64,000 bases of DNA, taken from the NCBI GenBank assembly GCA_965231005.1, contig OZ246405.1, positions 610,709-674,708 on the forward strand. Direction: 5' to 3'. This DNA is from an uncultured Gammaproteobacteria bacterium (GTDB lineage: Bacteria > Patescibacteriota > Patescibacteriia > Magasanikbacterales > UBA922). The position numbers were made by a program, and so were the translations under genes. Under the pieces are notes generated by a model. That model saw only the letters and a list, made by a program, of their open reading frames with translations. It searched no databases and was not told the origin of the DNA. Below are positions 8,533-28,776 of this stretch, piece after piece (the first letter of the stretch is position 1; each line of letters starts with the position of its first letter).

Positions 8533-8929
8533 TGGAGATGCCGGGAATTGAACCCGGGTCTAGACGGGTTAGCGTCATAATCTACATGCATAGCTGCTTT
8601 GTTGTTTCATATGATGCTAAAAAAGCAACAAAATAACATCATACTAAGCCTGAATTACTTCAGACAGCATTGTCAGGCAACAATGTTGTCCTACACTCGA
8701 AAAGTTGAGACCGCCGATCCACTATCGAGTATTATGGGGGCGATCGCCGTGGCACTTAAGCTACAGCAGTTGCGAGTGCTGGAGTGCTGAATGCGTTAGC
8801 AATAGCGCTCTTTACTCGATTGACTAAGTTTGCACTTATGTCTTGCCTTTGGGTATTTACGAGAACAAAGACATTCTCGACATGCATATGTACGATAACA
8901 AGATCCATCTATCGAATCCTGTCATCCCC
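8533..8929 (-). ncRNA. ssrA: tmRNA (ssrA), one-piece, with predicted tag ANLVNRVKSAIANAFSTPALATAVA
   Basis: Minus-strand 5' end GGGGATGACAGGATTCGATAG resembles the tmRNA 5' consensus. The 3' end GACCCGGGTTCAATTCCCGGCATCTCCA is a tRNA-like T-arm/acceptor. Resume context AUAAGU GCA AAC resembles E. coli AUAGUC GCA AAC. The tag ends Ala-Val-Ala-TAA (8833..8756). It lies adjacent to smpB. Confidence 0.75.
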
Positions 8930-17332: not shown

Positions 17333-17539
17333 AAAATTAGCCCTTTGACTCGTCACTTCGTTCCTCGCTAAGGACAAGCAAAAAACAAAGAACAAAAAAC
17401 AAGTATTTTAATTGGTATTATTCTTGAAAAAAATTACTAAAATGGCTTAAATAAGTCATTTTTTTCATTTCTTTATGTTTCTTACCTTTTTACTTTTTAG
17501 CATTTTCGCTTTTTTGCATTTTTAGTGATTGCAAAGTAC

Positions 17540-17568
17540 TTGACAAAATGGTAAAAATATGGTACAGT
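17540..17568 (+). promoter_or_regulatory. Sigma70-like promoter TTGACA-17-(TGg)TACAGT, copy 1 of a duplicated promoter cassette
   Basis: tacttgacaaaatggtaaaaatatggtacagtttgc matches 21721-21756 except for 2 nt. Confidence 0.55.
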
Positions 17569-17791: not shown

Positions 17792-19882
17792 ATGTCACCA
17801 GATCAGAAAAAACCTGATGGTGGTGCACATGGTAGTGCACCGCCGAAACGATCAACACTCGAACTTCATGCTGACAAGATCGTCAGCTTGGTCCAACAAG
17901 ACGGGCCAGAGGAGAACCCCATGACCGACAAGAAGACTGATACAACAACGCCGGGTCATGAGGTTCATGATTCGAATTCTGAAACCCCACCCCCGCTGCC
18001 AAGTGTGCTCGACTCGCTTGCTCCTGAGGACATAGCAAGAATAATAAGAGGAGAATCACAACCACTGCGAAGTGAATTGGTGCGATGTCCGAACTGTGGT
18101 GCTGTCTACCCTATGGATCAGGGAAAGGTCCAGGGTGGTTCTGAAAAGGATCAACAGTGTGTGTTGTGCCTTCATGAATTCACCCTCGGTGATGACAATG
18201 AAGCACAAGCAACAGCACAGTCTGAAACCCCACCACCAGTGCCTTCTTCGAACGTTCCGGCGGACAATGAGAAAATCCAATGTCCGAACTGCAAAACCAC
18301 ATTTCGGTCCATTGAAATCCTGCTTTGGGATCGCAATTACAAGTACGTCGTCTGCAGCCACGGATTCACCATCGATAACGACACTGAAGCACAAGCAACA
18401 GCACAGTCTGAAACCCCACCCCCACCCCCACTTCCGCTTCTCATTGGGGACAATGCCCCAGGTGGGAAGAACGTGACTTGCCCAAACTGCGATAAGGTCT
18501 ATTCACTGGATCCAGCTGACTTTGTAGGTGGTTTCCCGAACGTCTTTCAGTGCGCCCTATGCAATCATTGCTTCACTATCGATGATGAAACTGACGCACA
18601 GGATGACACACCACCTGCAATTCCGACCGCGCAGCAGCGTGCAGACAGAACAGGACTGACTGAGCCGTACAAGCCACTCGCCGACATCAAAGATCCAGAT
18701 GCTGATACGTCCACGATTCGTGAAACCATGCCAAGTCACCCGGGCCAAGCTCGTCGCGCTGAAAGCGATCACTACACGCAGGATGAACTTCCTCGCGTGG
18801 AAGATGAACGTGAAACACGGCAAGACCTTCCTGTTGTCACTGGCGATGATCAAGACACCAAGCCTGACATGGACGTTGTCAAAGCCGAAGACCTCGATGA
18901 AGACGATGCTGCTGAACTGGAAAAGGATGATGGCAAGGAAGCTGAAGAGCTGCCCCCGCCGATTTCAAGTCCCATGTTCAGTCCGGAACTGCGCAAACCA
19001 AACCCTGGTTTTCAGCTGCCTCCTCATCTCGAAGAGGTCGTTCGACTCTCTGCTGCTTCAACTCCCGATTCTCTTGCTTCCGGCGATGACGATCCATTCG
19101 GCGACGGCGGAGATCCCTTTGCTGGCCCAGGCACGAATCCCTTTGCTGTTGACGCAGATGATCCCTTCGGTGCTGAAGTTCCGTTCGGTCCAGGAGATGA
19201 TCTTGGGATGAAGGACGAAGACTACGGTGGTCCGAATGATTCTGTCGACGATGGTGATGAATTGCCTCCTGTCATGCCGGCTGATTCCAGTAAGGCGGCT
19301 CCCAAGCCGTCGCTGATTACTGGTTCCAGACCAAGGTTTCGTCCGACTGGACCTGTGCCTTCGGTTCACGATCAAGACGACAAAAGTGGCCCCCCGCCTC
19401 CTCGTCGTCAAGATCATCGAAAGACAATCCGAGTTCCACGTCATCGGCCGACTGCTCGTCCAGTGCCACCACCACCTCCTGGCCCGGCTCCCATTCGAAC
19501 GCCGACGCCTAGTGGTGGTTCACCCATTCCTGCATCTGCACCTGTTTCTACTCCGCCTCCGGCTGCGAGTACAACAGGACCGTCTGCTGCACCAACCCAG
19601 GCTGCTGCGGCTCCGCCCGCACAGTCACAACCGCCGGCTCCAACTGGGCCAGTGGTTGGTCCGACGGCATCAAGTGGCAGTGCTACTACACCGGTCAAGA
19701 CCAACAAGACCGTTGTGTGGATCATCGCCATTCTGATTGTTGCATGCCTGGCTCTCAATGCCTTTAGCGTGTGGCAAAGCAGAAACATCAGAAAGAACGT
19801 CATCGCGGTTCTGAAACATCGCGCTGGCATCCAAAAGGTCATTCAGGCTCCAATGCCGAAGACCAAGGGGGAAGAGAAATGA
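17792..19882 (+). CDS. Hypothetical protein with N-terminal Cys4 zinc-ribbon-like repeats, an acidic/Pro-rich disordered region and a C-terminal TM anchor
   Basis: GC-rich ORF with a strong SD. Three recognisable CPNC-x15-24-C-x2-C units, each ending in an acidic linker with EAQATAQSETPPP in the first two. A near-identical 35-nt segment recurs at 18197 and 18381. C-terminal helix TVVWIIAILIVACLALNAFSVW. Confidence 0.55.
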   Translation: MSPDQKKPDGGAHGSAPPKRSTLELHADKIVSLVQQDGPEENPMTDKKTDTTTPGHEVHDSNSETPPPLPSVLDSLAPEDIARIIRGESQPLRSELVRCPNCGAVYPMDQGKVQGGSEKDQQCVLCLHEFTLGDDNEAQATAQSETPPPVPSSNVPADNEKIQCPNCKTTFRSIEILLWDRNYKYVVCSHGFTIDNDTEAQATAQSETPPPPPLPLLIGDNAPGGKNVTCPNCDKVYSLDPADFVGGFPNVFQCALCNHCFTIDDETDAQDDTPPAIPTAQQRADRTGLTEPYKPLADIKDPDADTSTIRETMPSHPGQARRAESDHYTQDELPRVEDERETRQDLPVVTGDDQDTKPDMDVVKAEDLDEDDAAELEKDDGKEAEELPPPISSPMFSPELRKPNPGFQLPPHLEEVVRLSAASTPDSLASGDDDPFGDGGDPFAGPGTNPFAVDADDPFGAEVPFGPGDDLGMKDEDYGGPNDSVDDGDELPPVMPADSSKAAPKPSLITGSRPRFRPTGPVPSVHDQDDKSGPPPPRRQDHRKTIRVPRHRPTARPVPPPPPGPAPIRTPTPSGGSPIPASAPVSTPPPAASTTGPSAAPTQAAAAPPAQSQPPAPTGPVVGPTASSGSATTPVKTNKTVVWIIAILIVACLALNAFSVWQSRNIRKNVIAVLKHRAGIQKVIQAPMPKTKGEEK

Positions 19883-21558
19883 ATACGTTTATCAAGGTGC
19901 TACTCGCCATTCTCATCGGGGTTGTGGTCGCTGTGTCCGGCTACTTCGCATGGGAAACCATGAACACGAACAAGGCGCTCCTCGCTGAACTGAACAAGAC
20001 CGACAACGGTGCCCAGGAGGACACCAAGGTCAAGCCGGCGCCGAAGAAGTCGGCTGTCAAGAAAGCTGACAAGGCTTCCACGTCCCAGGCCAAGACGGCC
20101 GGCGACAAGAACGACCCCAAGAAGGTCGAGGAAGCTGCGAAGGCTGCCGAAGCCAAGAAGAAGGCCGAGGCCGAAGCTGCTGCCAAGGCTGCTGAAGCGA
20201 AGAAGAAGGCTGACGAAGCTCGCAACGACTGGGATGAAATCAACTCCCGTGGCGACGACCAACTCAGAGCTGAGAAGTTCGACGAAGCGTTCAAGACCTT
20301 CAAATCCTTGATCGGACACGAGCATCAGAATCATGGACTGGCTTACTACAACATCGCCTGCCTGTTCTCGGTGCAGTCTGTGTCAGACAAGCTCAAGGGC
20401 AAGAAGAAGGCGATTCGCAAGAGCAAGAAGCAAGCCCTCCACTACCTGGCTCAGGCCTGGGTAGCCGGCTACGACGACCTCGAATGGATGGAGAAAGACG
20501 AGGATCTCGATTCGATCCGCAAGACCCGCGGCTACAAAGAGATCAAGCGTCTGGCAGTGGAAAAGGGACTGGTTCGGCTCCCTGCGCCGGCCACCGAAGA
20601 CGTCGCCAAGAAGGCCAAGGATGAGCAGAAGGAACCCACGCCCAAGCTGACCGGCATCCACGCCCTGCGTGCCATGCCGATCAAGGGAGTTGCCGATTCT
20701 GACGAAGCCAGCAAGGCTGACAAGGACGCCAAGCGCATCGCCAACGCCAACGCCAAGAAGGTCAAGGGCAAGAAGGTTCGCAAAGGCAGCCGCGGCATCT
20801 CGTTCCTGGCCAAGGCTCGAGCCGAAGCCAAGCGGATGTACGCCAAGCTCCACAAGGACCAGAAGGCTCGTCGTGCAGCGCTCAACCGTGCGATCGCCCG
20901 ACTCAAGCGTGGCTACAAGCGCAAGAGCGATCTTGACAAGCAGGACGTTGACGACGAGATCGCAGAGCTCAAGCGAAAGGAGCAGGAACAGTCCGACGAC
21001 GAGGATCGGAAAGCCAAGGAAGAGGCCGAAAGGATGCTCGCCGACGGCAAGACCCAAGACGAGGTCAAGGCTATGTACGATGCTCTGGAGCGCAAGCAAC
21101 AGGCTCGTCGTGCAGCGCTCCTCAGCAAGATCGCGGACGAGCAAAGGCAGGCACGACAGCAGCGTCAGGATGATGCAGTCGACCTTCGCGATGAGATCGC
21201 CAAGCTGCGCGAAGCCGACAAAAAGGCTGACACGCAGTCCGCGGCAGCTGCCAAGGATCACGTGCAAGCCTTGTTCGACAAAGCGCAAGCCGCGACCAAC
21301 CGCGCCAACGCAAAGCGCGCGCGTCAACAGCGTCAGCGTGCGGCAGCGCCCTCGCGTCCGAGCTCGCCGCCCAGCCGTCCGGCTTCGGGTGGTTCGTCCA
21401 GCCTCGCACATGCGCCTGCGGCAGTTTCCAGCTGTCCGTATGGTGGAGACGAGGCCAACTGCGTCAAGAAGACGGTCGCGTACTTGACCAAGTTCGGTAC
21501 GCCCCTGGCCGATGCCAAGGGGAGTGCCAAGGCCAAGTGCAGCGCGCGCTGTCTGTAG
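19879..21558 (+). CDS. Membrane-anchored TPR/coiled-coil protein ending in a four-Cys module
   Basis: The ATG overlaps the upstream TGA (ATGA), indicating translational coupling. N-terminal TM helix. TPR-like GLAYYNIACLFS. Lys/Ala/Glu-rich coiled coil. C-terminus SCPYGGDEANCVKKTVAYLTKFGTPLADAKGSAKAKCSARCL. Confidence 0.55.
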   Translation: MNTFIKVLLAILIGVVVAVSGYFAWETMNTNKALLAELNKTDNGAQEDTKVKPAPKKSAVKKADKASTSQAKTAGDKNDPKKVEEAAKAAEAKKKAEAEAAAKAAEAKKKADEARNDWDEINSRGDDQLRAEKFDEAFKTFKSLIGHEHQNHGLAYYNIACLFSVQSVSDKLKGKKKAIRKSKKQALHYLAQAWVAGYDDLEWMEKDEDLDSIRKTRGYKEIKRLAVEKGLVRLPAPATEDVAKKAKDEQKEPTPKLTGIHALRAMPIKGVADSDEASKADKDAKRIANANAKKVKGKKVRKGSRGISFLAKARAEAKRMYAKLHKDQKARRAALNRAIARLKRGYKRKSDLDKQDVDDEIAELKRKEQEQSDDEDRKAKEEAERMLADGKTQDEVKAMYDALERKQQARRAALLSKIADEQRQARQQRQDDAVDLRDEIAKLREADKKADTQSAAAAKDHVQALFDKAQAATNRANAKRARQQRQRAAAPSRPSSPPSRPASGGSSSLAHAPAAVSSCPYGGDEANCVKKTVAYLTKFGTPLADAKGSAKAKCSARCL

Positions 21559-21577
21559 TCTGATCTGGTGAGAACCT

Positions 21578-21645
21578 GGCTTCCCGGTGCTCGTACGTTT
21601 ATTCGTACTTGCATCGGGAAGCCTCCTCACTTTCTTCTTTTTCTT
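21578..21645 (+). terminator. Terminator hairpin ggcttcccggtgctcgtacgtttattcgtacttgcatcgggaagcc plus a T-rich tail
   Basis: Long near-perfect stem immediately after the stop at 21558. Confidence 0.5.
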
Positions 21646-21723
21646 GAAAAGAGGGGAAAGCAGGGAAAATACCTTATTTAAGCCAAAAAAGATAAGTTTT
21701 TATGGTCTATAAAGCCTAAATAC

Positions 21724-21752
21724 TTGACAAAATGGTCAAAATATGGTATAGT
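21724..21752 (+). promoter_or_regulatory. Sigma70 promoter TTGACA-17-TATAGT, copy 2 of the duplicated cassette
   Basis: Near-identical to 17540-17568. Confidence 0.55.
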
Positions 21753-21943
21753 TTCTGGTCAAAATTGATAAAATATATACCCTTATCTATTGGCGTGCCA
21801 GTGCATAATCCATGCAATATGCAGTGCGCGCGAGTGTGATAAGGTACAGAAAATGTACATCGTACATTCTTTGTGTGTCACACCGCTTTCCAGACGTTTT
21901 AACGTCATCCAACAGGTTCATTACATTACTACATCACTACAAC

Positions 21944-22074
21944 TGTTCGATCGGTAAACAAGTTCATAATATTTGTGTACTGCTTTACCGGTCGAACATT
22001 TCACATCGCCTTTCTGACCGGGGGCACAGTTAATTCCAAGGTACGTTACCAAGGAACAAATTGACTGCGCCTGG
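21944..22074 (+). promoter_or_regulatory. Conserved ~130-nt structured 5' leader element, copy 1
   Basis: About 90% identical to 24885-25014. It contains a 14-bp stem GTTCGATCGGTAAA/TTTACCGGTCGAAC and a variable sub-hairpin. Confidence 0.5.
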
Positions 22075-22112
22075 TTTTCTGGGCGACGTGAAACAACAGA
22101 AGGAGGTGCGCA

Positions 22113-23402
22113 ATGGCGTACGCCGTTCGAAAAACCCGATCCGGGGGTGCCGGACAATACGTTTCAGTTTTTTCCGACCGTGCTGCGGTTCTCCGAAAAA
22201 TCGCGCGAGGGATGATCCGCAAGGGTGCGTTCATTCGCGTGGTTCCGGACACGGCTGCTACCAACGATGGCGAGAAGGCCGCAGTCAAGGCTGATCTGGA
22301 TAACGCGGATTTCGTGCTCATCGAGAACCATCCGCATTTCGCTGGCATCAACTTCCCGGCGCCTGCTGACGCTTCGGCTGCTGCGACTGCGGATGCTGCG
22401 GCCACCCGTGCGAATGCCAATGCTGCTGCGGCCAATGTGACCGTTGCGGAGGCTACTGCTGCTCAGGCTCAAACCGAAGCCGACGCTGCTAACGCTCGTG
22501 CCAACGCTGCTGATGCCGCCACTGCTCAGGCCAACGCCGAGGCTACTGCTGCTCAGGCTCGTGTCGACGTTGCCAACGCTGCTGCTGCTCAGGCCAACGC
22601 CGAGGCTACTGCTGCTCAGGCTGCTGGGGATGCTGACGCTCAAGTTGCTGCTGCAGAGGCTGTTGCGGAGGCTGCTGCTGCTCAGGCCGATGCTGCTCAG
22701 GCACATGCCGACGCGGTTCAGGCTGCTGCGGATGCTGCTCAGGCTGCTGCGGATGCTGCTGACGCTGCTACCCAGGCTGGTGCTGCTGCCGGTCAGGCTC
22801 TGATCGCTACCAGTCAAGCTCGGGATGCTGCTGCTGAGGCTGAGGCTGAGGCGCTCGAGGCACAGGCCGATGCGGACGATGCTGCTGCCTTTGCTCAGGC
22901 TCAGGCCGACGAGCGGGCCAATCGCCGTTCGGTTCGGTTCGTCGCGTGGCTGCGTCGCAACTGGAAGAAGGTTCTGCTGGCTCTGCTGGTTCTCCTCCTT
23001 CTCGGTTGCGTGTGGTTCTTCTGGAGCAACATCAAGGCCCTGGTCACGGGGGGTGGTGGTTCGCCGCCGCCTTCGGTGGTGAACCCGCCGACCCCACCGA
23101 CGCCGCCCGTTCCGACGCCGCCCGTTCCGCCGCCGCCGGCTGCGACTCCGGTCGTTCCGCCGCCGACGGTGACGCCTCCGCCACCGCCCGCGACTCCGCC
23201 GGTTTCGCCGACGGTCACGCCTCCGCCGACCCCGCCGACTTCGGGGGGCACGGCAGCGCCGACTGGACAGCCTGGCTGTCCGTTCGGTGTGGGGTACACG
23301 GACTGTTACACCAAGACGGTGGCCTACCTGGTCAGCCATGGTGTGGCGACTTCGGACGCGCAGGACAAGGCGCGCGAGAAGTGCGGACCGCGTTGCAGGT
23401 GA
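22113..23402 (+). CDS. Bitopic protein with an Ala-rich repeat region, a Pro-rich linker and a C-terminal four-Cys module paralogous to the one at 19879
   Basis: SD aggagg. Repeats AATAAQANAEATAAQA. TM helix VLLALLVLLLLGCVWFFW preceded by a basic stretch. PPTPP linker. C-terminus GCPFGVGYTDCYTKTVAYLVSHGVATSDAQDKAREKCGPRCR. Confidence 0.55.
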   Translation: MAYAVRKTRSGGAGQYVSVFSDRAAVLRKIARGMIRKGAFIRVVPDTAATNDGEKAAVKADLDNADFVLIENHPHFAGINFPAPADASAAATADAAATRANANAAAANVTVAEATAAQAQTEADAANARANAADAATAQANAEATAAQARVDVANAAAAQANAEATAAQAAGDADAQVAAAEAVAEAAAAQADAAQAHADAVQAAADAAQAAADAADAATQAGAAAGQALIATSQARDAAAEAEAEALEAQADADDAAAFAQAQADERANRRSVRFVAWLRRNWKKVLLALLVLLLLGCVWFFWSNIKALVTGGGGSPPPSVVNPPTPPTPPVPTPPVPPPPAATPVVPPPTVTPPPPPATPPVSPTVTPPPTPPTSGGTAAPTGQPGCPFGVGYTDCYTKTVAYLVSHGVATSDAQDKAREKCGPRCR

Positions 23403-23824
23403 TGTAGCCTGTTGGAGGGAAGCCCGCTACCGGCGCATGCATTCGTGTGTGTGTCCGGTAGCCCTCCAACCGCTTTCTTTTATAAAAGAGAAAGAGGTTG
23501 GGGGAATACAAAATTAGAAATTGGAAATTAGGGATTAAGTGTATTGACATATTGAGTAATAGAGAAAAGAAATTTTCTTTAGTACTCAGGGTGTCATGTA
23601 GACATTATTGTAAAATTACAATGTGTCTCGTGTCCTGATTAGACAGGTTCATTATAATTTAGTTGAAGAATAACTATCTGGTGGGTAAAAAGATAATATA
23701 CATATGTTACTTTTTTTCTCACCAGATAGTGGCACGTGCCGCTTGTTTCTTCGTCGCCCTTGGGGCATTTCACAAATGGCCCCATCGGTGAGGAGGGGCA
23801 AGGCAACAACAACAGGAGGACGCG

Positions 23825-24724
23825 ATGAACATCCGTCTCGTTTCGTTCATGATCGTCGCATCGGTGACGGTCGGTTTCATTTCCATCAACTCATTCGCGC
23901 AGGCACCGGCCGACTACCCAGCCGTTCGCGACGATGCGCACAAGGGTGCTTCGCTCGCCGAGTCCAACGCCAAGCGCCTGACCGCCCTGGAGAAGCGGAT
24001 CAAGCGGCTCAAGCGCGCCAAGGCTGCGGCCAAGGCCAAGCACACGGCCAACCCGACCCCCGCCAACAACGTCGCTCTGAAGGCCGCGGTCCGCGCGCTC
24101 GACGAGGCCAAGAAGGCAGGTCTGTCCATGTGCGCCCTGAAGACTGGCGAGGATTTCCGGCACTGCATCGACGTCGTGGAAGGCAAGGTGTTCGAGGTGG
24201 AGAAGGACTCCATCCGGATGGCCGCGCTGCTCGCAGTCGGCTGCATCGTGAAGGAGAACAAGTCCACAGATCCTTCCAAGGGTTCGAAAAAGGGCGCATC
24301 CATCACGACCACCGAGCTCGTCTGCGACAAGGACAAGGCCAAGAAGGCGCCGCGCTGCATCCGGTTCAAGCGCTTCAGCAAGCACGCGCACACCTACTTC
24401 GACGTCGGCGGTGACAACTGCAAGGAAGAAGACAGCAACCCGCTGCCCAAGAAGCCGGCGACTCCGCCCAAGCCCAAGGCCGAACCGTGGTCCAAGGGCA
24501 AGCGTTTGCTGGCCAGCGCTGGCATGTGCCTGCTGGCCGGTGGTGTGCTCGCTGTTCCTGGTTACGTCATCGGCGACGCCATCGAGGGCGGTCACTGGGA
24601 GACCAATCCGGAGACCGGCAACGACGACTGGTATGCGCCCAAGGGTCCGCTCGGTGCTGGCATCGGCGGTCTGACCGGCTGCCTCAGCGCGTTCGCGGGC
24701 ACATGGAGTGCGACGAGCGAGTAG
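23825..24724 (+). CDS. Secreted Cys-containing hypothetical protein
   Basis: SD aggagg. Signal peptide MNIRLVSFMIVASVTVGFISINSFAQA. Seven Cys residues. Gly-rich hydrophobic C-terminal segment. Confidence 0.5.
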   Translation: MNIRLVSFMIVASVTVGFISINSFAQAPADYPAVRDDAHKGASLAESNAKRLTALEKRIKRLKRAKAAAKAKHTANPTPANNVALKAAVRALDEAKKAGLSMCALKTGEDFRHCIDVVEGKVFEVEKDSIRMAALLAVGCIVKENKSTDPSKGSKKGASITTTELVCDKDKAKKAPRCIRFKRFSKHAHTYFDVGGDNCKEEDSNPLPKKPATPPKPKAEPWSKGKRLLASAGMCLLAGGVLAVPGYVIGDAIEGGHWETNPETGNDDWYAPKGPLGAGIGGLTGCLSAFAGTWSATSE

Positions 24725-24884
24725 CCTTTCTTCAACTGCTGAATCTGTCGGGGGTTGGTAGCATGTTCATTCATGTCTGTCAACCCCCGTCGGAATATCT
24801 TTCTCTTTGTAAAAAGGGAGAGATGAACGATTATTGTTCATTACAATTGAGAAACTACTACAGAAACATCTTGAATACCTTTTG

Positions 24885-25014
24885 TGTTCGATCGGTAAAC
24901 AAGTACATAACATTTGTGTACTGCTTTACCGGTCGGACATTTCCACATCGCCTTTTTGACCGGGGGCACAGTTAATCCGTGGCGTGTTGCCGCGGACCAA
25001 ATTGACTGCGCCTG
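24885..25014 (+). promoter_or_regulatory. Conserved ~130-nt structured 5' leader element, copy 2
   Basis: See 21944-22074. The same position relative to the downstream SD and start. Confidence 0.5.
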
Positions 25015-25071
25015 AGAAATTGGGCGATTGTGGAATGATTCGGGCGAGACCCGAGAAAAGAGAGGTAACTC

Positions 25072-28000
25072 ATGAACAGCAAGCTCAACACGATTTCCGT
25101 TTGTTTCGTGGCGCTGATGATCGTTTTCGGGTGCAGCCCGGACGCGAGCTACAAGCCCAACGACCCCAAGAACCCCAACCCGGCCCGCAAGGCCGATGCC
25201 AACAACAGCGACACCAGCAGCGCGGATGCGGGTTCGAGCGCGGATACCGGTCAGCCGACCGATCCGTGCGCCGATCCCAAGTTCTGCAACGATGGCAAGG
25301 TCTGCACGGCCGACACCTGCAAGGACGGCAAGTGCAAGCACACCATCGACGCGACGCTCTGTGATGACGGCAACCCCTGCACACATGACCTGTGTGACGA
25401 CCTGGGGATCTGTGTGAACAAGGCTCACGAAGGTTCGTGCCAGGACGGGAATGCCTGTACTGTGGGTGATCATTGCAAGAATGGCACCTGCCAGTCGGGA
25501 AAGAACATGCCCTGTCCCAACGAGAACTCGTGTGTCATCGCAACCTGCAACCCGAAAGAAGGCAAGTGCAACTACGAGCCCAAGAGCGGTGACTGCAACG
25601 ACGGCAACAAGTGCACGGTTGGCGATTTCTGCATCAACCAGAAGTGCAAGAGCGGTTTCAAGAAGTTGGACTGTGATGACAAGAACGTGTGCACGACTGA
25701 CAGCTGCAATCCAGAAGACGGTTGTGTTCACAAGCCGATCGACCTTCCCTGCAGCGACAACAGCTCGTGTACCATCTCGGATAAGTGCAAGGACGGAAAA
25801 TGCGTGGGCCAGGTTGTCAACTGCGACGACAAGAACCCGTGCACGACCGACTCGTGCGATCCGGCGGCGCCCCCGGGCAAGGCATGCAAGCACGTGAACA
25901 ACACCAGCGAGTGCGACGACGGCAACAAGTGCACGTCCGGCGACGTTTGCCAGGATGGTCAGTGTAAGAAGGGAACCACGTCGGTCGATTGCGACGACGG
26001 GAACCCGTGCACTACCAATTCCTGCGACGCCAAGGTCGGCTGCCAGAAGCTCAACAACAACAACTCGTGCGACGACGGCAACAACTGCACCATCAATGAC
26101 AAGTGCTTTAACGGCAAGTGCAACTCCACTACCAAGAAGTGTGGCGACAGCAACAAGTGCGTCACCAACACGTGCGACCAGGCAACTGGCGCGTGTGTGA
26201 AAAAGGAGCTGTGCGACGACGGCAAGGCCTGCACCGAAAACACGTGCGACATCAACACCGGCAAGTGCGAAAACCCTGACAAGAAGTGCGACGACGGCAA
26301 GGCCTGCACCAAGGATAGCTGCAACACCACCACGGGCAAGTGCGAGTACGAGATGATCGTTGGTGCGAACTGCTTCTGCAAGTTCGACTCCAACTGTGAC
26401 GACGGAAACGAGTGCACTGTCAGCGCATGCGATAAGGCGACTGGCAAATGCGCGCTCGCGAAGAAGTACAGCGGGACCTCGTGTGACGACGGGAACCCGT
26501 GCACCACCTCGGACAAGTGCGACCCCAAGACCGGCAAGTGCTCGTCGGCAAAGGCCACGGCCTGCGACGACGGGAACCCCTGCACGGACGACTCCTGCGA
26601 CCCCACGGTCGTTGGCGGTTGTGTGGCGGTGAAGAACAACAAGCTGTGTGACGACGGTGACGCGTGCACCAAGGGTGATATCTGCCTGGACGGCGCGTGT
26701 AACCCCGGCAAGGCCCCGGTCTGCGACGACGGCAACATCTGCACGGATGACAGCTGTGACTCGAAGCTCGGATGCAAGAACACGGCCAACTCGGCCAGCT
26801 GCTCGGATGGGAGCGCCTGCACCTCAAACGACAAGTGCGAGGGCGGGAGCTGCAAGAGCGTTGCGGTGAAATGCGACGACTCCAACCCCTGTACCGACGA
26901 TAGCTGCGACGCGAAGGTCGGCTGCAAGTACGCCAAGAACACCAAGCCGTGTAACGACGGTGACGAGTGTACCATCAGCGAGGTGTGCAAAGACGGCAAG
27001 TGTGGTTCTGGCAAGGCCAAGTCGTGCGACGACAACAAGAAGTGTACCATCGACTCGTGCGACAAGGACAAGGGCTGCCAGCACAAGCAGATTTCCTCGG
27101 CGACCTGCTGCGCTTCGGACGCTGAGTGCGACGATAAAAAGCCGTGCACGGTGGACAAGTGCGATCCGAAGGAAGGTTGCAAGAACACCAAGAAGCTCTG
27201 CTCGGACAACAACCAGTGCACCGACGACGTGTGTGATCCCCAGTCTGGAGATTGCAAGCACACGAAGTTCAGTGGACCGGCCTGCGACGACGGCAACAGT
27301 TGTACCAAATCCGAGAAGTGCGAAAAGGGCAAGTGCGAAGCTGGCTTTACCATCAAGTGCAACGACAACAAACCCTGCACCAAGGATACGTGCGACACCA
27401 AGGGCGGATGCGTCTTCACCAAGACCGTGGATCCCTGCGACGACGGGGACGCGTGTACGAATGGAGACAAGTGCGCCAATGGCGAGTGCGTGTCTGGCAA
27501 GCAGATCGTCTGCGACGACAACAAGGTCTGCACGACCGACAGCTGTGACTCCAAGAAGGGGTGCGTGTTCGCGAACAATTCGGATGCCTGTACGGACGGA
27601 AACGCCTGTACACCGAATGACGTCTGCAAGGACGGCAAGTGCTCGTCGCAGCCTGAGAACTGTGACGACGCGAACGCGTGTACCAACGACAGTTGTGACA
27701 AGAGCAAGGGCTGCAAGCACATCAACAACACCAAGGTCTGCAACGACGGCAACAAGTGTACGGACAACGGAGTCTGCAGTGGCGGCGCCTGCAAGCCGGG
27801 CAAAGCCATCAACTGCGACGACGGCAAGAAGTGCACGACGGATAGCTGTGACCCGACCACGGGCAAGTGCAAGAACGTGGCGCTGGTGTGCGATGACGAC
27901 GCCTGTACGGATGGCGATGGCAAGTGTGACGAGAGCACGGGCAAGTGTGCAGTGGGTCTTCCCAAGAACTGCACTGACACCGACGTGTGTACCAAGAATT

Positions 28001-28593
28001 TCTGCTCGGAAGGAACCTGCAAGGTCTCTCCGAACTGCGATGACGGGAACGCATGCACGGCTGATAGCTGTGACCCAAAGAAGCCCGAGAAGGATCAGTG
28101 TTCGCACGTCCCGATCTCGGGTTGCAAGTCGGTCGAGGTCAAGCTCTCCGTGGTTTTTTCTGAGATGTTCAAGATGGAAGCCGCACCCAAGGGTGGCAAC
28201 TACGTCCGGTTCTTCGTCAAGAAGTGCGAGGCCAAGGCTGCTGACGGCTCGTCCGTCATGTTGCTCAAGCCTGGCTCCTTCTACGGAGGCGCTGAGATCA
28301 AGAACAGCTCGAAGCTCGAGTACACCAATCCTGCAAAGGTCCAGGACTTCGTGCAGATCCCGAAGAATGCCTGCTGCATCAACATCGTAGGGTACCAAAG
28401 CAGTAAGATCTCCAATCCTTACGGGGACTCGAAGATCTGGGCTTTCAGTACGACTCCCAATACCAAGACCCACAACATGGAGCCGGTCCTCACGACCAGC
28501 AATGGACTGACGTACAAGTTCACGTTGAAAGACGTCCATGACAACGGTGTGGGGGGATACGACGCGTGCAACAGCGAAGTCATCTCCAAGTAG
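25072..28593 (+). CDS. Giant lipoprotein with ~60 tandem Cys-rich repeats (CDDGNxCTxDxCD...) and a distinct ~170-aa C-terminal domain
   Basis: Signal/lipobox MNSKLNTISVCFVALMIVFGCS. Regular ~12-aa repeats with an invariant Cys-Asp-Asp-Gly-Asn-x-Cys-Thr pattern, reminiscent of Myxococcales-type Cys-rich repeats. The repeat register confirms the + frame. Confidence 0.65.
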   Translation: MNSKLNTISVCFVALMIVFGCSPDASYKPNDPKNPNPARKADANNSDTSSADAGSSADTGQPTDPCADPKFCNDGKVCTADTCKDGKCKHTIDATLCDDGNPCTHDLCDDLGICVNKAHEGSCQDGNACTVGDHCKNGTCQSGKNMPCPNENSCVIATCNPKEGKCNYEPKSGDCNDGNKCTVGDFCINQKCKSGFKKLDCDDKNVCTTDSCNPEDGCVHKPIDLPCSDNSSCTISDKCKDGKCVGQVVNCDDKNPCTTDSCDPAAPPGKACKHVNNTSECDDGNKCTSGDVCQDGQCKKGTTSVDCDDGNPCTTNSCDAKVGCQKLNNNNSCDDGNNCTINDKCFNGKCNSTTKKCGDSNKCVTNTCDQATGACVKKELCDDGKACTENTCDINTGKCENPDKKCDDGKACTKDSCNTTTGKCEYEMIVGANCFCKFDSNCDDGNECTVSACDKATGKCALAKKYSGTSCDDGNPCTTSDKCDPKTGKCSSAKATACDDGNPCTDDSCDPTVVGGCVAVKNNKLCDDGDACTKGDICLDGACNPGKAPVCDDGNICTDDSCDSKLGCKNTANSASCSDGSACTSNDKCEGGSCKSVAVKCDDSNPCTDDSCDAKVGCKYAKNTKPCNDGDECTISEVCKDGKCGSGKAKSCDDNKKCTIDSCDKDKGCQHKQISSATCCASDAECDDKKPCTVDKCDPKEGCKNTKKLCSDNNQCTDDVCDPQSGDCKHTKFSGPACDDGNSCTKSEKCEKGKCEAGFTIKCNDNKPCTKDTCDTKGGCVFTKTVDPCDDGDACTNGDKCANGECVSGKQIVCDDNKVCTTDSCDSKKGCVFANNSDACTDGNACTPNDVCKDGKCSSQPENCDDANACTNDSCDKSKGCKHINNTKVCNDGNKCTDNGVCSGGACKPGKAINCDDGKKCTTDSCDPTTGKCKNVALVCDDDACTDGDGKCDESTGKCAVGLPKNCTDTDVCTKNFCSEGTCKVSPNCDDGNACTADSCDPKKPEKDQCSHVPISGCKSVEVKLSVVFSEMFKMEAAPKGGNYVRFFVKKCEAKAADGSSVMLLKPGSFYGGAEIKNSSKLEYTNPAKVQDFVQIPKNACCINIVGYQSSKISNPYGDSKIWAFSTTPNTKTHNMEPVLTTSNGLTYKFTLKDVHDNGVGGYDACNSEVISK

Positions 28594-28776
28594 TTCTCAA
28601 GAAAATGATCACTCCCTCCTGCGCAATGTGATCTGCCGTGGACGGGCTCGAGCCTGAAACTCGAGTCCGTCCCGGCCGCGCAACTCCGAATATGATTCAC
28701 GTCTATTCGGAGCTCCCCAAGGTTCATTTTTCCTCAGAAAAGTGGACACTTGTAAGAGTTAAACATAGGTACAGGA

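Follow-up and report, generated by a model that had tools for sequence, protein, structure and literature searches.

Two otherwise unrelated membrane-anchored proteins, here termed B and C, were found to end in a common 41-residue module that carries four cysteines at the spacing C-x8-C-x25-C-x3-C and stops, in each copy, one residue past the final Cys. Both proteins are encoded within the window, i.e. the whole 64,000-nucleotide stretch of DNA that was analysed. We consider, at a probability of roughly 0.45, that the module represents a lineage-restricted helical hairpin that is located outside the cytoplasm, held by two nested disulfides and displayed on B and C as a shared terminal docking knob. 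The genes and their parts are as follows (window coordinates).

19879..21558, + strand: gene B, an open reading frame of 559 aa comprising an N-terminal TM segment or signal anchor, a Lys/Ala/Glu-rich region, a TPR end-of-group domain, a Pro/Ser linker and the four-Cys module
19885..19941, + strand: TM segment or signal anchor of B, aa 3-21 (Kyte-Doolittle 19-residue window, mean 2.43)
20410..20544, + strand: TPR end-of-group domain of B, aa 178-222 (NCBIfam NF047558, 37.9 bits, cut-off 32, E=1.2e-9)
21340..21432, + strand: Pro/Ser-rich linker of B, about aa 488-518, read from the translation as AAAPSRPSSPPSRPASGGSSSLAHAPAAVSS
21433..21555, + strand: four-Cys module, copy 1, B aa 519-559, with Cys 519, 528, 554 and 558; B ends in ...SCPYGGDEANCVKKTVAYLTKFGTPLADAKGSAKAKCSARCL, with its stop codon at 21556-21558
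22113..23402, + strand: gene C, an open reading frame of 429 aa comprising a small N-terminal region, Ala-rich repeats, a TM segment, a Pro-rich stalk and the four-Cys module
22971..23027, + strand: TM segment of C, aa 287-305 (Kyte-Doolittle mean 2.63), preceded by RSVRFVAWLRRNWKK
23049..23276, + strand: Gly/Pro-rich stalk of C, about aa 313-388, from the translation
23277..23399, + strand: four-Cys module, copy 2, C aa 389-429, with Cys 389, 398, 424 and 428; C ends in ...GCPFGVGYTDCYTKTVAYLVSHGVATSDAQDKAREKCGPRCR, with its stop codon at 23400-23402

The ATG of B overlaps the stop codon of the preceding gene A (ATGA at 19879-19882), and ENA contig ERZ930065 k127_29052 has the identical 559-aa protein among its gene calls. 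The start of C, which has a GGAGG 7 nt upstream of its ATG, is similarly called on an ENA contig (L001 12235, equivalent to window position 22113). Compared with 5.8 billion protein clusters, full-length B matched itself only and stood as a singleton, while whole C has no record as a called protein and a homologue search with its N-terminal 96 residues returned no match. A weak 'Zot-like' PHROG match of C was dismissed as compositional, since it covers only the TM and Pro-rich region. The stalk of C additionally contains Pro-codon DNA repeats (family D11).

The first-pass annotation had proposed that B and C share a C-terminal module, and pairwise comparison bears this out. The sole BLASTP match between the full-length proteins was their C-terminal segment (20/47 residues identical, ungapped, composition-adjusted E=1e-9), and the Smith-Waterman score of the two modules, 110, was never reached in 20,000 shuffles (23 +/- 4.7, maximum 54). 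With all Cys masked, the score was 71 as against 20 +/- 4.1, again reached by 0 of 20,000 shuffles. The overall motif given in that annotation also stands, with the correction that five residues, not six, separate C-P-[YF]-G from the second Cys. An HMM built from both modules and run against the six-frame translation of the window identified these two copies only. Each carrier has a single Cys outside the module (i.e. four of its five Cys lie within), and the net charge of the module is +4 in B and +2 in C.

At the DNA level, the two copies are 54% identical (80/147 positions) and their flanks differ. Different codons are used at 10 of the 20 identical residues, and identity amounts to 59%, 63% and 41% at the first, second and third codon positions, respectively. 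The differing codons and the lower third-position identity point to old conservation at the protein level rather than recent duplication of DNA, and indicate that the module is under purifying selection as a protein; since the comparison is limited to two copies from a single genome, the pattern of conservation is weakly sampled and is without covariation. These figures also bear on the explanation that the similarity is an artefact of chance in Ala/Lys-rich tails, of recent duplication or gene conversion, or of misassembly. Both genes are compositionally biased and rich in repeats, and an ENA assembly from the same sample breaks within the Ala repeat of C. However, the composition-adjusted E value, the shuffles (even when Cys-masked), the divergence of the DNA and its flanks, and the synonymous changes at half of the conserved residues all argue against it, and the B copy is present on a separately deposited ENA contig, which stops before the module of C. 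This explanation was therefore rejected as scarcely credible.

The annotation did not recognise the module as a named domain, and the searches were all negative in this respect: neither copy matched Pfam or PDB sequences at E<=10, nor were matches obtained in NCBIfam, PHROGs or PADLOC, while Foldseek against PDB and BFVD returned a best E of about 1. When the two-sequence alignment was searched by word index against 5.8 billion protein clusters, no candidate emerged. The seeded profile search that had been suggested was performed as an exhaustive hmmsearch of 1.84 billion representatives and retrieved B itself and no true relative; four further matches were set aside as multi-repeat proteins (ankyrin and others), whose scores sum 5-8 partial stretches and which produce many spurious Pfam matches. 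Scanning of GTDB genome contigs with the module alignment, by means of over-specific peptide patterns, gave no match. The degenerate DNA patterns for CP[YF]G-x5-C-x2-KTVAYL and C-x2-KTVAYL-x3-G-x4-DA each had 0 matches in JGI metagenome contigs, the core DNA pattern had 0 matches in viral contigs, and tblastn of the module against plasmids yielded no match. Judged by these sequence comparisons, the module is a real orphan domain, present as two copies in one metagenomic genome and without homologues in the collections searched.

It is conceivable, though in our estimation very improbable, that the module instead belongs to a known family, such as an ankyrin-like helix-turn cap or a CHCH-type hairpin, but has diverged so far that the profiles miss it. 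The two-sequence profile drew ankyrin-repeat proteins by way of a TVAWLVxHGA helix-Gly turn (P0002), and CHCH domains and alpha-hairpinins combine a helical hairpin with four Cys in an overall architecture similar to that of the module. The ankyrin matches, however, span 14-27 profile positions, have no equivalent Cys and become significant only by the summing of 5-8 repeats, and the same proteins give many spurious summed matches to unrelated Pfam families. The likeness to ankyrin is local, extending over only about 14 residues (KTVAYLVSHGV versus ankyrin xxVxxLLxxGA); the module has neither a tandem repeat nor a Pfam ANK match (E<=10), and the ankyrin repeat lacks the Cys. Furthermore, the Cys spacing is neither twin CX9C nor twin CX3C, and the empty Pfam and PDB sequence searches and the poor Foldseek values weigh against any such family.

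An AlphaFold check had likewise been suggested for the module, and a helix-turn-helix hairpin was predicted for both B and C in two independent AlphaFold2 runs, each based on a very shallow alignment. For the B module within a 48-aa segment (two-sequence alignment), helices were predicted at residues 14-27 and 32-46 with a core pLDDT of 84-93, and for C aa 323-429 (single sequence) the same two helices were predicted with a pLDDT of 79-93. The four Cys are predicted to lie at the open end of the hairpin. The conservation is compatible with an antiparallel arrangement, which, in the numbering of the 48-aa segment, would bring positions summing to about 60 face to face, so that V22/L25 would oppose A35/A39 and C17 would oppose C43, leaving C8 and C47 for a second bond. 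Conservation extends to all faces of helix 1 in KTVAYL but is restricted to a single face of helix 2, which suggests that the module possesses an exposed functional surface in addition to its structural core.

In the hairpin that we favour, helix 1 would thus carry Cys2 together with the invariant KTVAYL, and helix 2 would bear the C-x3-C pair as well as a packing face formed by the conserved Ala35/Ala39. The C-P-[YF]-G loop ahead of helix 1, in which Cys1 lies, would turn back to meet the hairpin at its open end, and two nested disulfides, Cys1-Cys4 and Cys2-Cys3, would lock the structure.

The hydropathy profile and translation of C agree with the earlier description of its module as following a TM helix and a PPTPP linker, the Pro-rich stretch being a long one, and Pro/Ser-rich linkers precede the module in both proteins. 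The single predicted TM segment of C is flanked by six Lys/Arg on its N-terminal side versus one on its C-terminal side, so an N-in/C-out orientation is indicated. B has a single N-terminal hydrophobic segment with a weak charge bias (net 0 on the C-flank), and may be secreted with a cleaved signal peptide rather than being strictly bitopic; were B oriented N-out/C-in, its module would be cytoplasmic. It is therefore plausible that the module is extracytoplasmic and caps a flexible stalk rich in Pro/Ser, the positive-inside signal being clear for C and weak for B. Disulfide bonding is also plausible, given this topology and the predicted clustering of the Cys at the end of the hairpin. Genes D and E, located nearby, specify exported proteins rich in Cys (that of E contains 13% Cys and 19 Dicty_CTDC repeats, along with a lipoprotein-like signal), hence the organism evidently folds disulfide-rich proteins outside the cytoplasm. 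No disulfide-forming enzyme was seen in the window; small-genome CPR bacteria have been reported to possess Cys-rich extracellular proteins as well as a disulfide-forming protein (PMC4736985), which provides a lead.

The same cysteines could alternatively form a metal site, i.e. a structural Zn(Cys)4 or small Fe-S centre, with the module being cytoplasmic in at least one of the two proteins. The convergence of four invariant Cys at one end of a tiny predicted fold would suit such a site, as would the zinc-knuckle-like C-P-x-G context of the first Cys, the lack of a firmly predicted orientation for B and the three MJ0042 zinc ribbons of the adjoining gene A. We nevertheless regard it as unlikely: the clear positive-inside signal of C places its module outside, the x8 and x3 spacings on helices differ from CxxC knuckle pairs, the model is all-helical rather than a beta-ribbon, and zinc-ribbon and Fe-S families remained unmatched even at E<=10. 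Compared with zinc ribbons and knuckles of the MJ0042 type (PF13717, TIGR02098), the module lacks CxxC and a profile match and is modelled as all-alpha, whereas gene A does match.

The position of the module at the extreme C-terminus of both proteins, behind a protease-accessible Pro/Ser linker, also raises the idea of a released or processed element, either a hairpin peptide stabilised by Cys that is cut from the stalk and serves as a toxin, inhibitor or signal, or a tag recognised by a dedicated enzyme of sorting or attachment. The module is small, basic and Cys-stabilised, as are the alpha-hairpinin defence peptides. This idea is quite unlikely, since the hydrophobic helix and basic tail typical of LPXTG, PEP-CTERM and MYXO-CTERM are absent, no sorting-signal model matches, no sortase-like or protease gene was seen in the block, and, apart from an A-P that precedes the first Cys by seven residues, no cleavage motif is conserved. 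In contrast to sorting signals (LPXTG, PEP-CTERM, MYXO-CTERM and GlyGly-CTERM), the last 41 residues have no TM peak and no NCBIfam match.

The transcriptional context of the two carriers was also inspected, and the following elements were located.

17539..17568, + strand: promoter-like site upstream of the A-B operon (TTGACA-17-TACAGT, TG-extended)
21567..21631, + strand: terminator-like hairpin and U-tract after B (fold -41.6 kcal/mol, z=-8.2)
21723..21752, + strand: second promoter copy, upstream of C (TTGACA-17-TATAGT, TG-extended, 11/12 consensus matches)
23411..23470, + strand: terminator-like hairpin after C (fold -43.7 kcal/mol, z=-6.5)

The 26-mer CTTGACAAAATGGTNAAAATATGGTA occurs in the window only upstream of the A-B operon and upstream of C, and this common promoter core suggests that the operon and C are co-expressed. 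The window has a GC content of ~35% (GC3 about 0.24), and its host is probably CPR-like. The orphan genes A-E and a solitary gene at 4596-5423 display a GC3 of 0.45-0.84 as against 0.23-0.31 for the host, the switch in GC coinciding with the edges of transcription units: AT-rich spacer parts have 31-36% GC, and only GC-rich terminator hairpins (55-67%) lie between these and the coding sequences. The promoters of the units are AT-rich and native-looking, with one of them present as an exact duplicate, and the units also have strong terminators and conserved leader hairpins. No support was obtained for the GC-rich genes being of phage or plasmid origin. The hairpins behind the genes were also considered as integron cassette sites, with attC core sites inspected by eye, and this was dropped in view of the length of the units and their own promoters and leaders.

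This arrangement could be read as a surface-protein cassette system of which the module is a shuffled part, acting as a partner-specific adhesin tip. Either the coding sequences would derive by capture from a partner or donor of high GC, or an unknown process would maintain their GC richness, and terminal domains such as the four-Cys knob would be swapped among units along with regulatory leaders, thereby diversifying attachment proteins. We consider this improbable.

In the favoured reading of a docking hairpin, domain shuffling would have added the module to two membrane-anchored proteins that are unrelated but co-regulated. There it may bind a common component of the envelope or of a partner cell, or the module of the other protein, thus linking the two carriers within a single surface structure. 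Such docking is conjectural, and a basic 41-residue hairpin could equally bind acidic polymers or membranes. The module occurs twice in a single metagenomic genome, without relatives or a functional handle, and is of limited practical value. Its genomic context is more striking and may merit more attention: orphan coding sequences that are GC-rich only within their transcription units, in an AT-rich genome, and that have promoters and leader hairpins in common. This context bears on how surface proteins are acquired and expressed in reduced-genome symbionts.

Cys-stapled alpha-hairpins are best known from proteins of the mitochondrial intermembrane space and from plant peptides. If the model is right, the module represents a bacterial, membrane-tethered variant of this design and a case of domain shuffling among the surface proteins of an uncultured small-genome bacterium. 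CHCH domains (Cox17, Cox19 and Mia40 substrates; PF06747) are hairpins of ~40 residues with two nested disulfides (C1-C4 and C2-C3) that form outside the cytoplasm in an oxidising compartment, and the predicted helix-turn-helix and putative nested disulfides of the module resemble them. In contrast, the module has C-x8-C and C-x3-C instead of CX9C and CX9C, a Pro/Gly loop ahead of helix 1 contains its first Cys, it is bacterial and located at the C-terminus of large membrane-anchored proteins rather than being a free small protein, and neither copy matches the PF06747 profile at E<=10. Similarly, alpha-hairpinins and twin-CX3C proteins (plant defence peptides and small Tim chaperones) share with the predicted structure a short Cys-stapled alpha-hairpin and a C-x3-C on one helix; the module, however, has one CX3C only, its partner Cys are 8 residues apart with one of them helical, and homology is undetectable. 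As regards the organism, the closest comparison is with CPR bacteria of the Peribacteria type (PMC4736985), which it resembles in its ~1.2 Mb contig, its many glycosyltransferase and envelope genes, its FG-GAP proteins and its large exported Cys-repeat proteins reminiscent of the Myxococcus/Dictyostelium Cys repeat. The published description differs in that it deals with long Cys-repeat proteins, such as that encoded by gene E, rather than with a 41-residue terminal helical module.

The module under study, a C-terminal segment of 41 residues with four cysteines (Cys1-Cys4 in order; motif C-x8-C-x25-C-x3-C), is carried by two genes of the window, B and C, whose features are as follows.

19879-21558 (+): gene B, 559 aa, with a start codon (ATG) that overlaps the stop codon of the upstream gene A
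B, aa 3-21: hydrophobic segment, N-terminal and the only one
B, after this segment: long Lys/Ala/Glu/Arg-rich region
B, aa 178-222: TPR end-of-group domain (NF047558, 37.9 bits, cut-off 32)
B, directly before the module: Pro/Ser linker
22113-23402 (+): gene C, 429 aa
C, N-terminal ~95 residues: region for which searches found no homologues
C, ~170 residues (window 22419-22900): Ala-rich repeats, degenerate, 9/27-nt periodic and GCT-rich
C, aa 287-305: single TM helix, preceded by RSVRFVAWLRRNWKK, with six Lys/Arg on its N-side versus one on its C-side
C, ~75 residues between TM helix and module: Gly/Pro-rich stalk

The module holds four of the five cysteines of B and likewise four of five in C (a protein with 30% Ala overall); in both it follows a Pro/Ser-rich linker, and its last Cys plus one residue forms the end of the protein. 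The first-pass annotation had claimed that B and C share this ending, and comparison of the full proteins by BLASTP bears this out, as the C-terminal tails alone align (20/47 identities, ungapped, E=1e-9) and the rest is noise. For tails of 48 residues (the module plus preceding residues) the Smith-Waterman score was 110 versus 23 +/- 4.7 in shuffles, with none of 20,000 shuffles attaining 110, and masking of all cysteines left a score of 71 versus 20 +/- 4.1. The residue pattern first proposed stands overall, save that five residues rather than six lie between CP[YF]G and the second Cys. When the window was translated in all six frames and scanned with an HMM of the two tails, no further copy came up.

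At the DNA level the two copies are ~54% identical, codons differ at 10 of the 20 conserved residues, and identity is 41% at third codon positions, versus 59% at first and 63% at second positions. These values indicate that the copies diverged long ago under protein-level selection, and they count against a recent repeat, gene conversion or an assembly artefact, so that an artefactual origin is scarcely credible. The identical 559-aa B product and the start of C are also called on an ENA contig (ERZ930065; run ERR2281800, k127_29052, 21.6 kb), which is 100% identical to the window over the shared part and ends within the Ala-rich repeat of C; it derives from the same organism and represents no independent lineage. 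No record of C as a called protein was found. We conclude that the module is a real, as yet unnamed, domain.

The earlier statement that no named domain is recognisable was upheld by searches against Pfam and NCBIfam (E<=10 and E<=1), PHROGs, PADLOC and PDB sequences (E<=10), none of which returned a match, while Foldseek against PDB and BFVD gave generic hairpins at best E>1. The profile search that had been proposed, run exhaustively against 1.84 billion representative proteins, recovered B at 98.9 bits and four multi-repeat proteins. The latter were rejected, each score being the total of 5-8 partial stretches; among them is an ankyrin protein aligned via TVAWLVxHGA, and two others (P0003 and P0004), when rescanned against Pfam, gave strings of spurious matches to unrelated families, for which reason all four were discounted. 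A word-indexed protein search, DNA-pattern scans of genome, metagenome and viral sequences, and tblastn against plasmids yielded nothing for the module, and B forms a singleton in a set of 5.8 billion clusters. On these results the module is an orphan present in two copies. A two-sequence, 48-position profile is blind at this database size to relatives below ~35-40% identity. That the module is a diverged offshoot of some known family we regard as very improbable, given the absence of matches in the domain collections.

Two AlphaFold2 runs, the fold check suggested at the outset, were performed on the B tail with a two-sequence alignment and, in single-sequence mode, on C aa 323-429. Both predicted the same two helices (core pLDDT 79-93), numbered here along the 48-residue segment.

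Positions 14-27: predicted helix 1, including Cys2 and the invariant KTVAYL
Positions 32-46: predicted helix 2, with D34, A35, A39, K42, C43, R46 and C47

In the proposed antiparallel hairpin, facing positions would sum to ~60, placing V22/L25 opposite A35/A39 and C17 opposite C43, while C8 of the CP[YF]G loop would meet the remaining C47; from this pairing we infer a nested C1-C4/C2-C3 connectivity, and disulfides in the module are plausible on the predicted models. Conservation is confined to one face of helix 2 and runs all round helix 1 for KTVAYL, which hints at an exposed functional surface.

The arrangement described for C, in which a TM helix and a Pro-rich linker precede the module, was confirmed, and by the positive-inside rule the six versus one flanking Lys/Arg would place the module of C outside the membrane. 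In B the N-terminal segment is most simply read as either a signal anchor or a signal peptide, and the module would then lie outside as well; the charge bias of this segment is weak. An extracytoplasmic location is thus plausible from sequence. Were the module cytoplasmic, its four cysteines could be envisaged as a metal site, Zn(Cys)4 or Fe-S, a reading that the predicted topology of C makes unlikely. Its position at the extreme C-terminus after a linker would also suit a cleaved hairpin peptide or a sorting tag, which we consider less likely still.

B and C belong to a block whose composition differs from its surroundings.

17792-28593 (+): GC-rich block (17.8-28.6 kb) of five genes, A-E
17792-19882 (+): gene A, 696 aa, translationally coupled to B
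18156-18238 and 18342-18424: 83-nt DNA repeat in gene A
21942-22000, 23673-23730 and 24883-24941: conserved ~24-bp 5' leader hairpin, upstream of C, D and E, respectively
21567-21631, 23411-23470, 24744-24794 and 28620-28682: strong GC-rich hairpins 3' of B, C, D and E, respectively (z -4.9 to -8.2)
4596-5423: solitary sixth GC-rich gene

GC3 is 0.45, 0.75, 0.60, 0.84 and 0.82 in A to E versus 0.23-0.31 in surrounding genes, and coding GC is 54-66% versus ~0.35 in neighbouring genes. The shift coincides with the boundaries of the individual transcription units: the spacers (42-45% GC as a whole, 31-36% in their AT-rich parts) contain sigma-70-like promoters, and the terminator hairpins just beyond the stops have 55-67% GC. 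Behind the hairpins of B, C and D lie a U-rich tract and another palindrome, this one AT-rich (CTTTCTyTTT...AAAAGAGrAAAG). The leaders of C and E are similar over ~150 nt (59-nt core 95% identical; C fold z=-8.2), six compensatory double changes keep the helix in D, and no Rfam family matched; the leader of A has an unrelated 17-bp hairpin directly before the ribosome-binding site. Gene D and the solitary gene had no match in viral and plasmid scans. Judged from composition, the block is a mosaic in which the coding sequences look foreign and the regions that control them look native, and we deem this of more interest than the module, which is restricted to two genes in one metagenomic genome, gives no handle on function and is of modest novelty.

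A 26-nt promoter core, CTTGACAAAATGGTNAAAATATGGTA (TTGACA, 17-nt spacer, TG-extended -10), lies upstream of the A-B operon (17539-17564) and of C (21723-21748) and nowhere else in the window, from which the two module-bearing proteins are probably co-expressed. The product of A has three zinc ribbons of the MJ0042 type (PF13717/TIGR02098) with repeated 'ETPPP' linkers between them, then a long Pro-rich stretch and, at the C-terminus, a TM. D encodes a protein with a signal peptide and an exported part that contains six Cys, and E (25072-28593, 1173 aa) one with a lipoprotein-like signal (…MIVFGC), 13% Cys, 19 Dicty_CTDC (Dictyostelium-type Cys) repeats (PF00526, E=1.5e-92) and ~150 C-terminal residues free of repeats. 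Since these adjoining genes encode exported Cys-rich proteins, the cell must be able to oxidise exported cysteines. Our best guess is a disulfide-locked helical hairpin, displayed outside the membrane at the tip of a flexible stalk, that would act as a docking knob common to B and C.

As further context in favour of this guess, host genes on the flanks are of the envelope/polysaccharide type (GT4 glycosyltransferases, Wzy_C, Wzz, FG-GAP/GHL15, DUF11), a content that, taken with a contig of 1.23 Mb, resembles CPR-type small genomes. Further features of the window were recorded.

28832-63497: large envelope/polysaccharide region with Wzy_C-like proteins (some with TPR), several GT4 glycosyltransferases, a GHL15 plus FG-GAP protein, a DUF11 protein, a NodU-like carbamoyltransferase, and an ECF sigma factor with a DUF5667 protein
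8530-8929 (-): tmRNA of standard type (Rfam 137.7 bits), whose predicted tag, ANLVNRVKSAIANAFSTPALATAVA, is unusual
6723-6799 (-): tRNA-Asp, near the tmRNA
567-3704: phosphoenolpyruvate synthase, 1045 aa; the family model spans residues 17-802, outside which lies a C-terminal extension of ~240 residues
64-558: ORF with a pyruvate-kinase C-terminal domain, directly upstream of the synthase

Small-genome CPR bacteria are reported to have extracellular proteins rich in Cys, with a presumed role in attachment, and a disulfide-forming protein (PMC4736985); this parallel may serve as a lead only. As to known families, membership tests rejected three assignments of the module: to the zinc ribbons, to the ankyrin repeats and to the C-terminal sorting signals. 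It may be likened to the CHCH/twin-CX9C and alpha-hairpinin class, in which a nested pair of disulfides staples a helical hairpin, whereas the Cys spacings and profile matches that define these are absent from it. The module thus belongs to no known family, and we would file it as a variant of the Cys-stapled small helical hairpin type.
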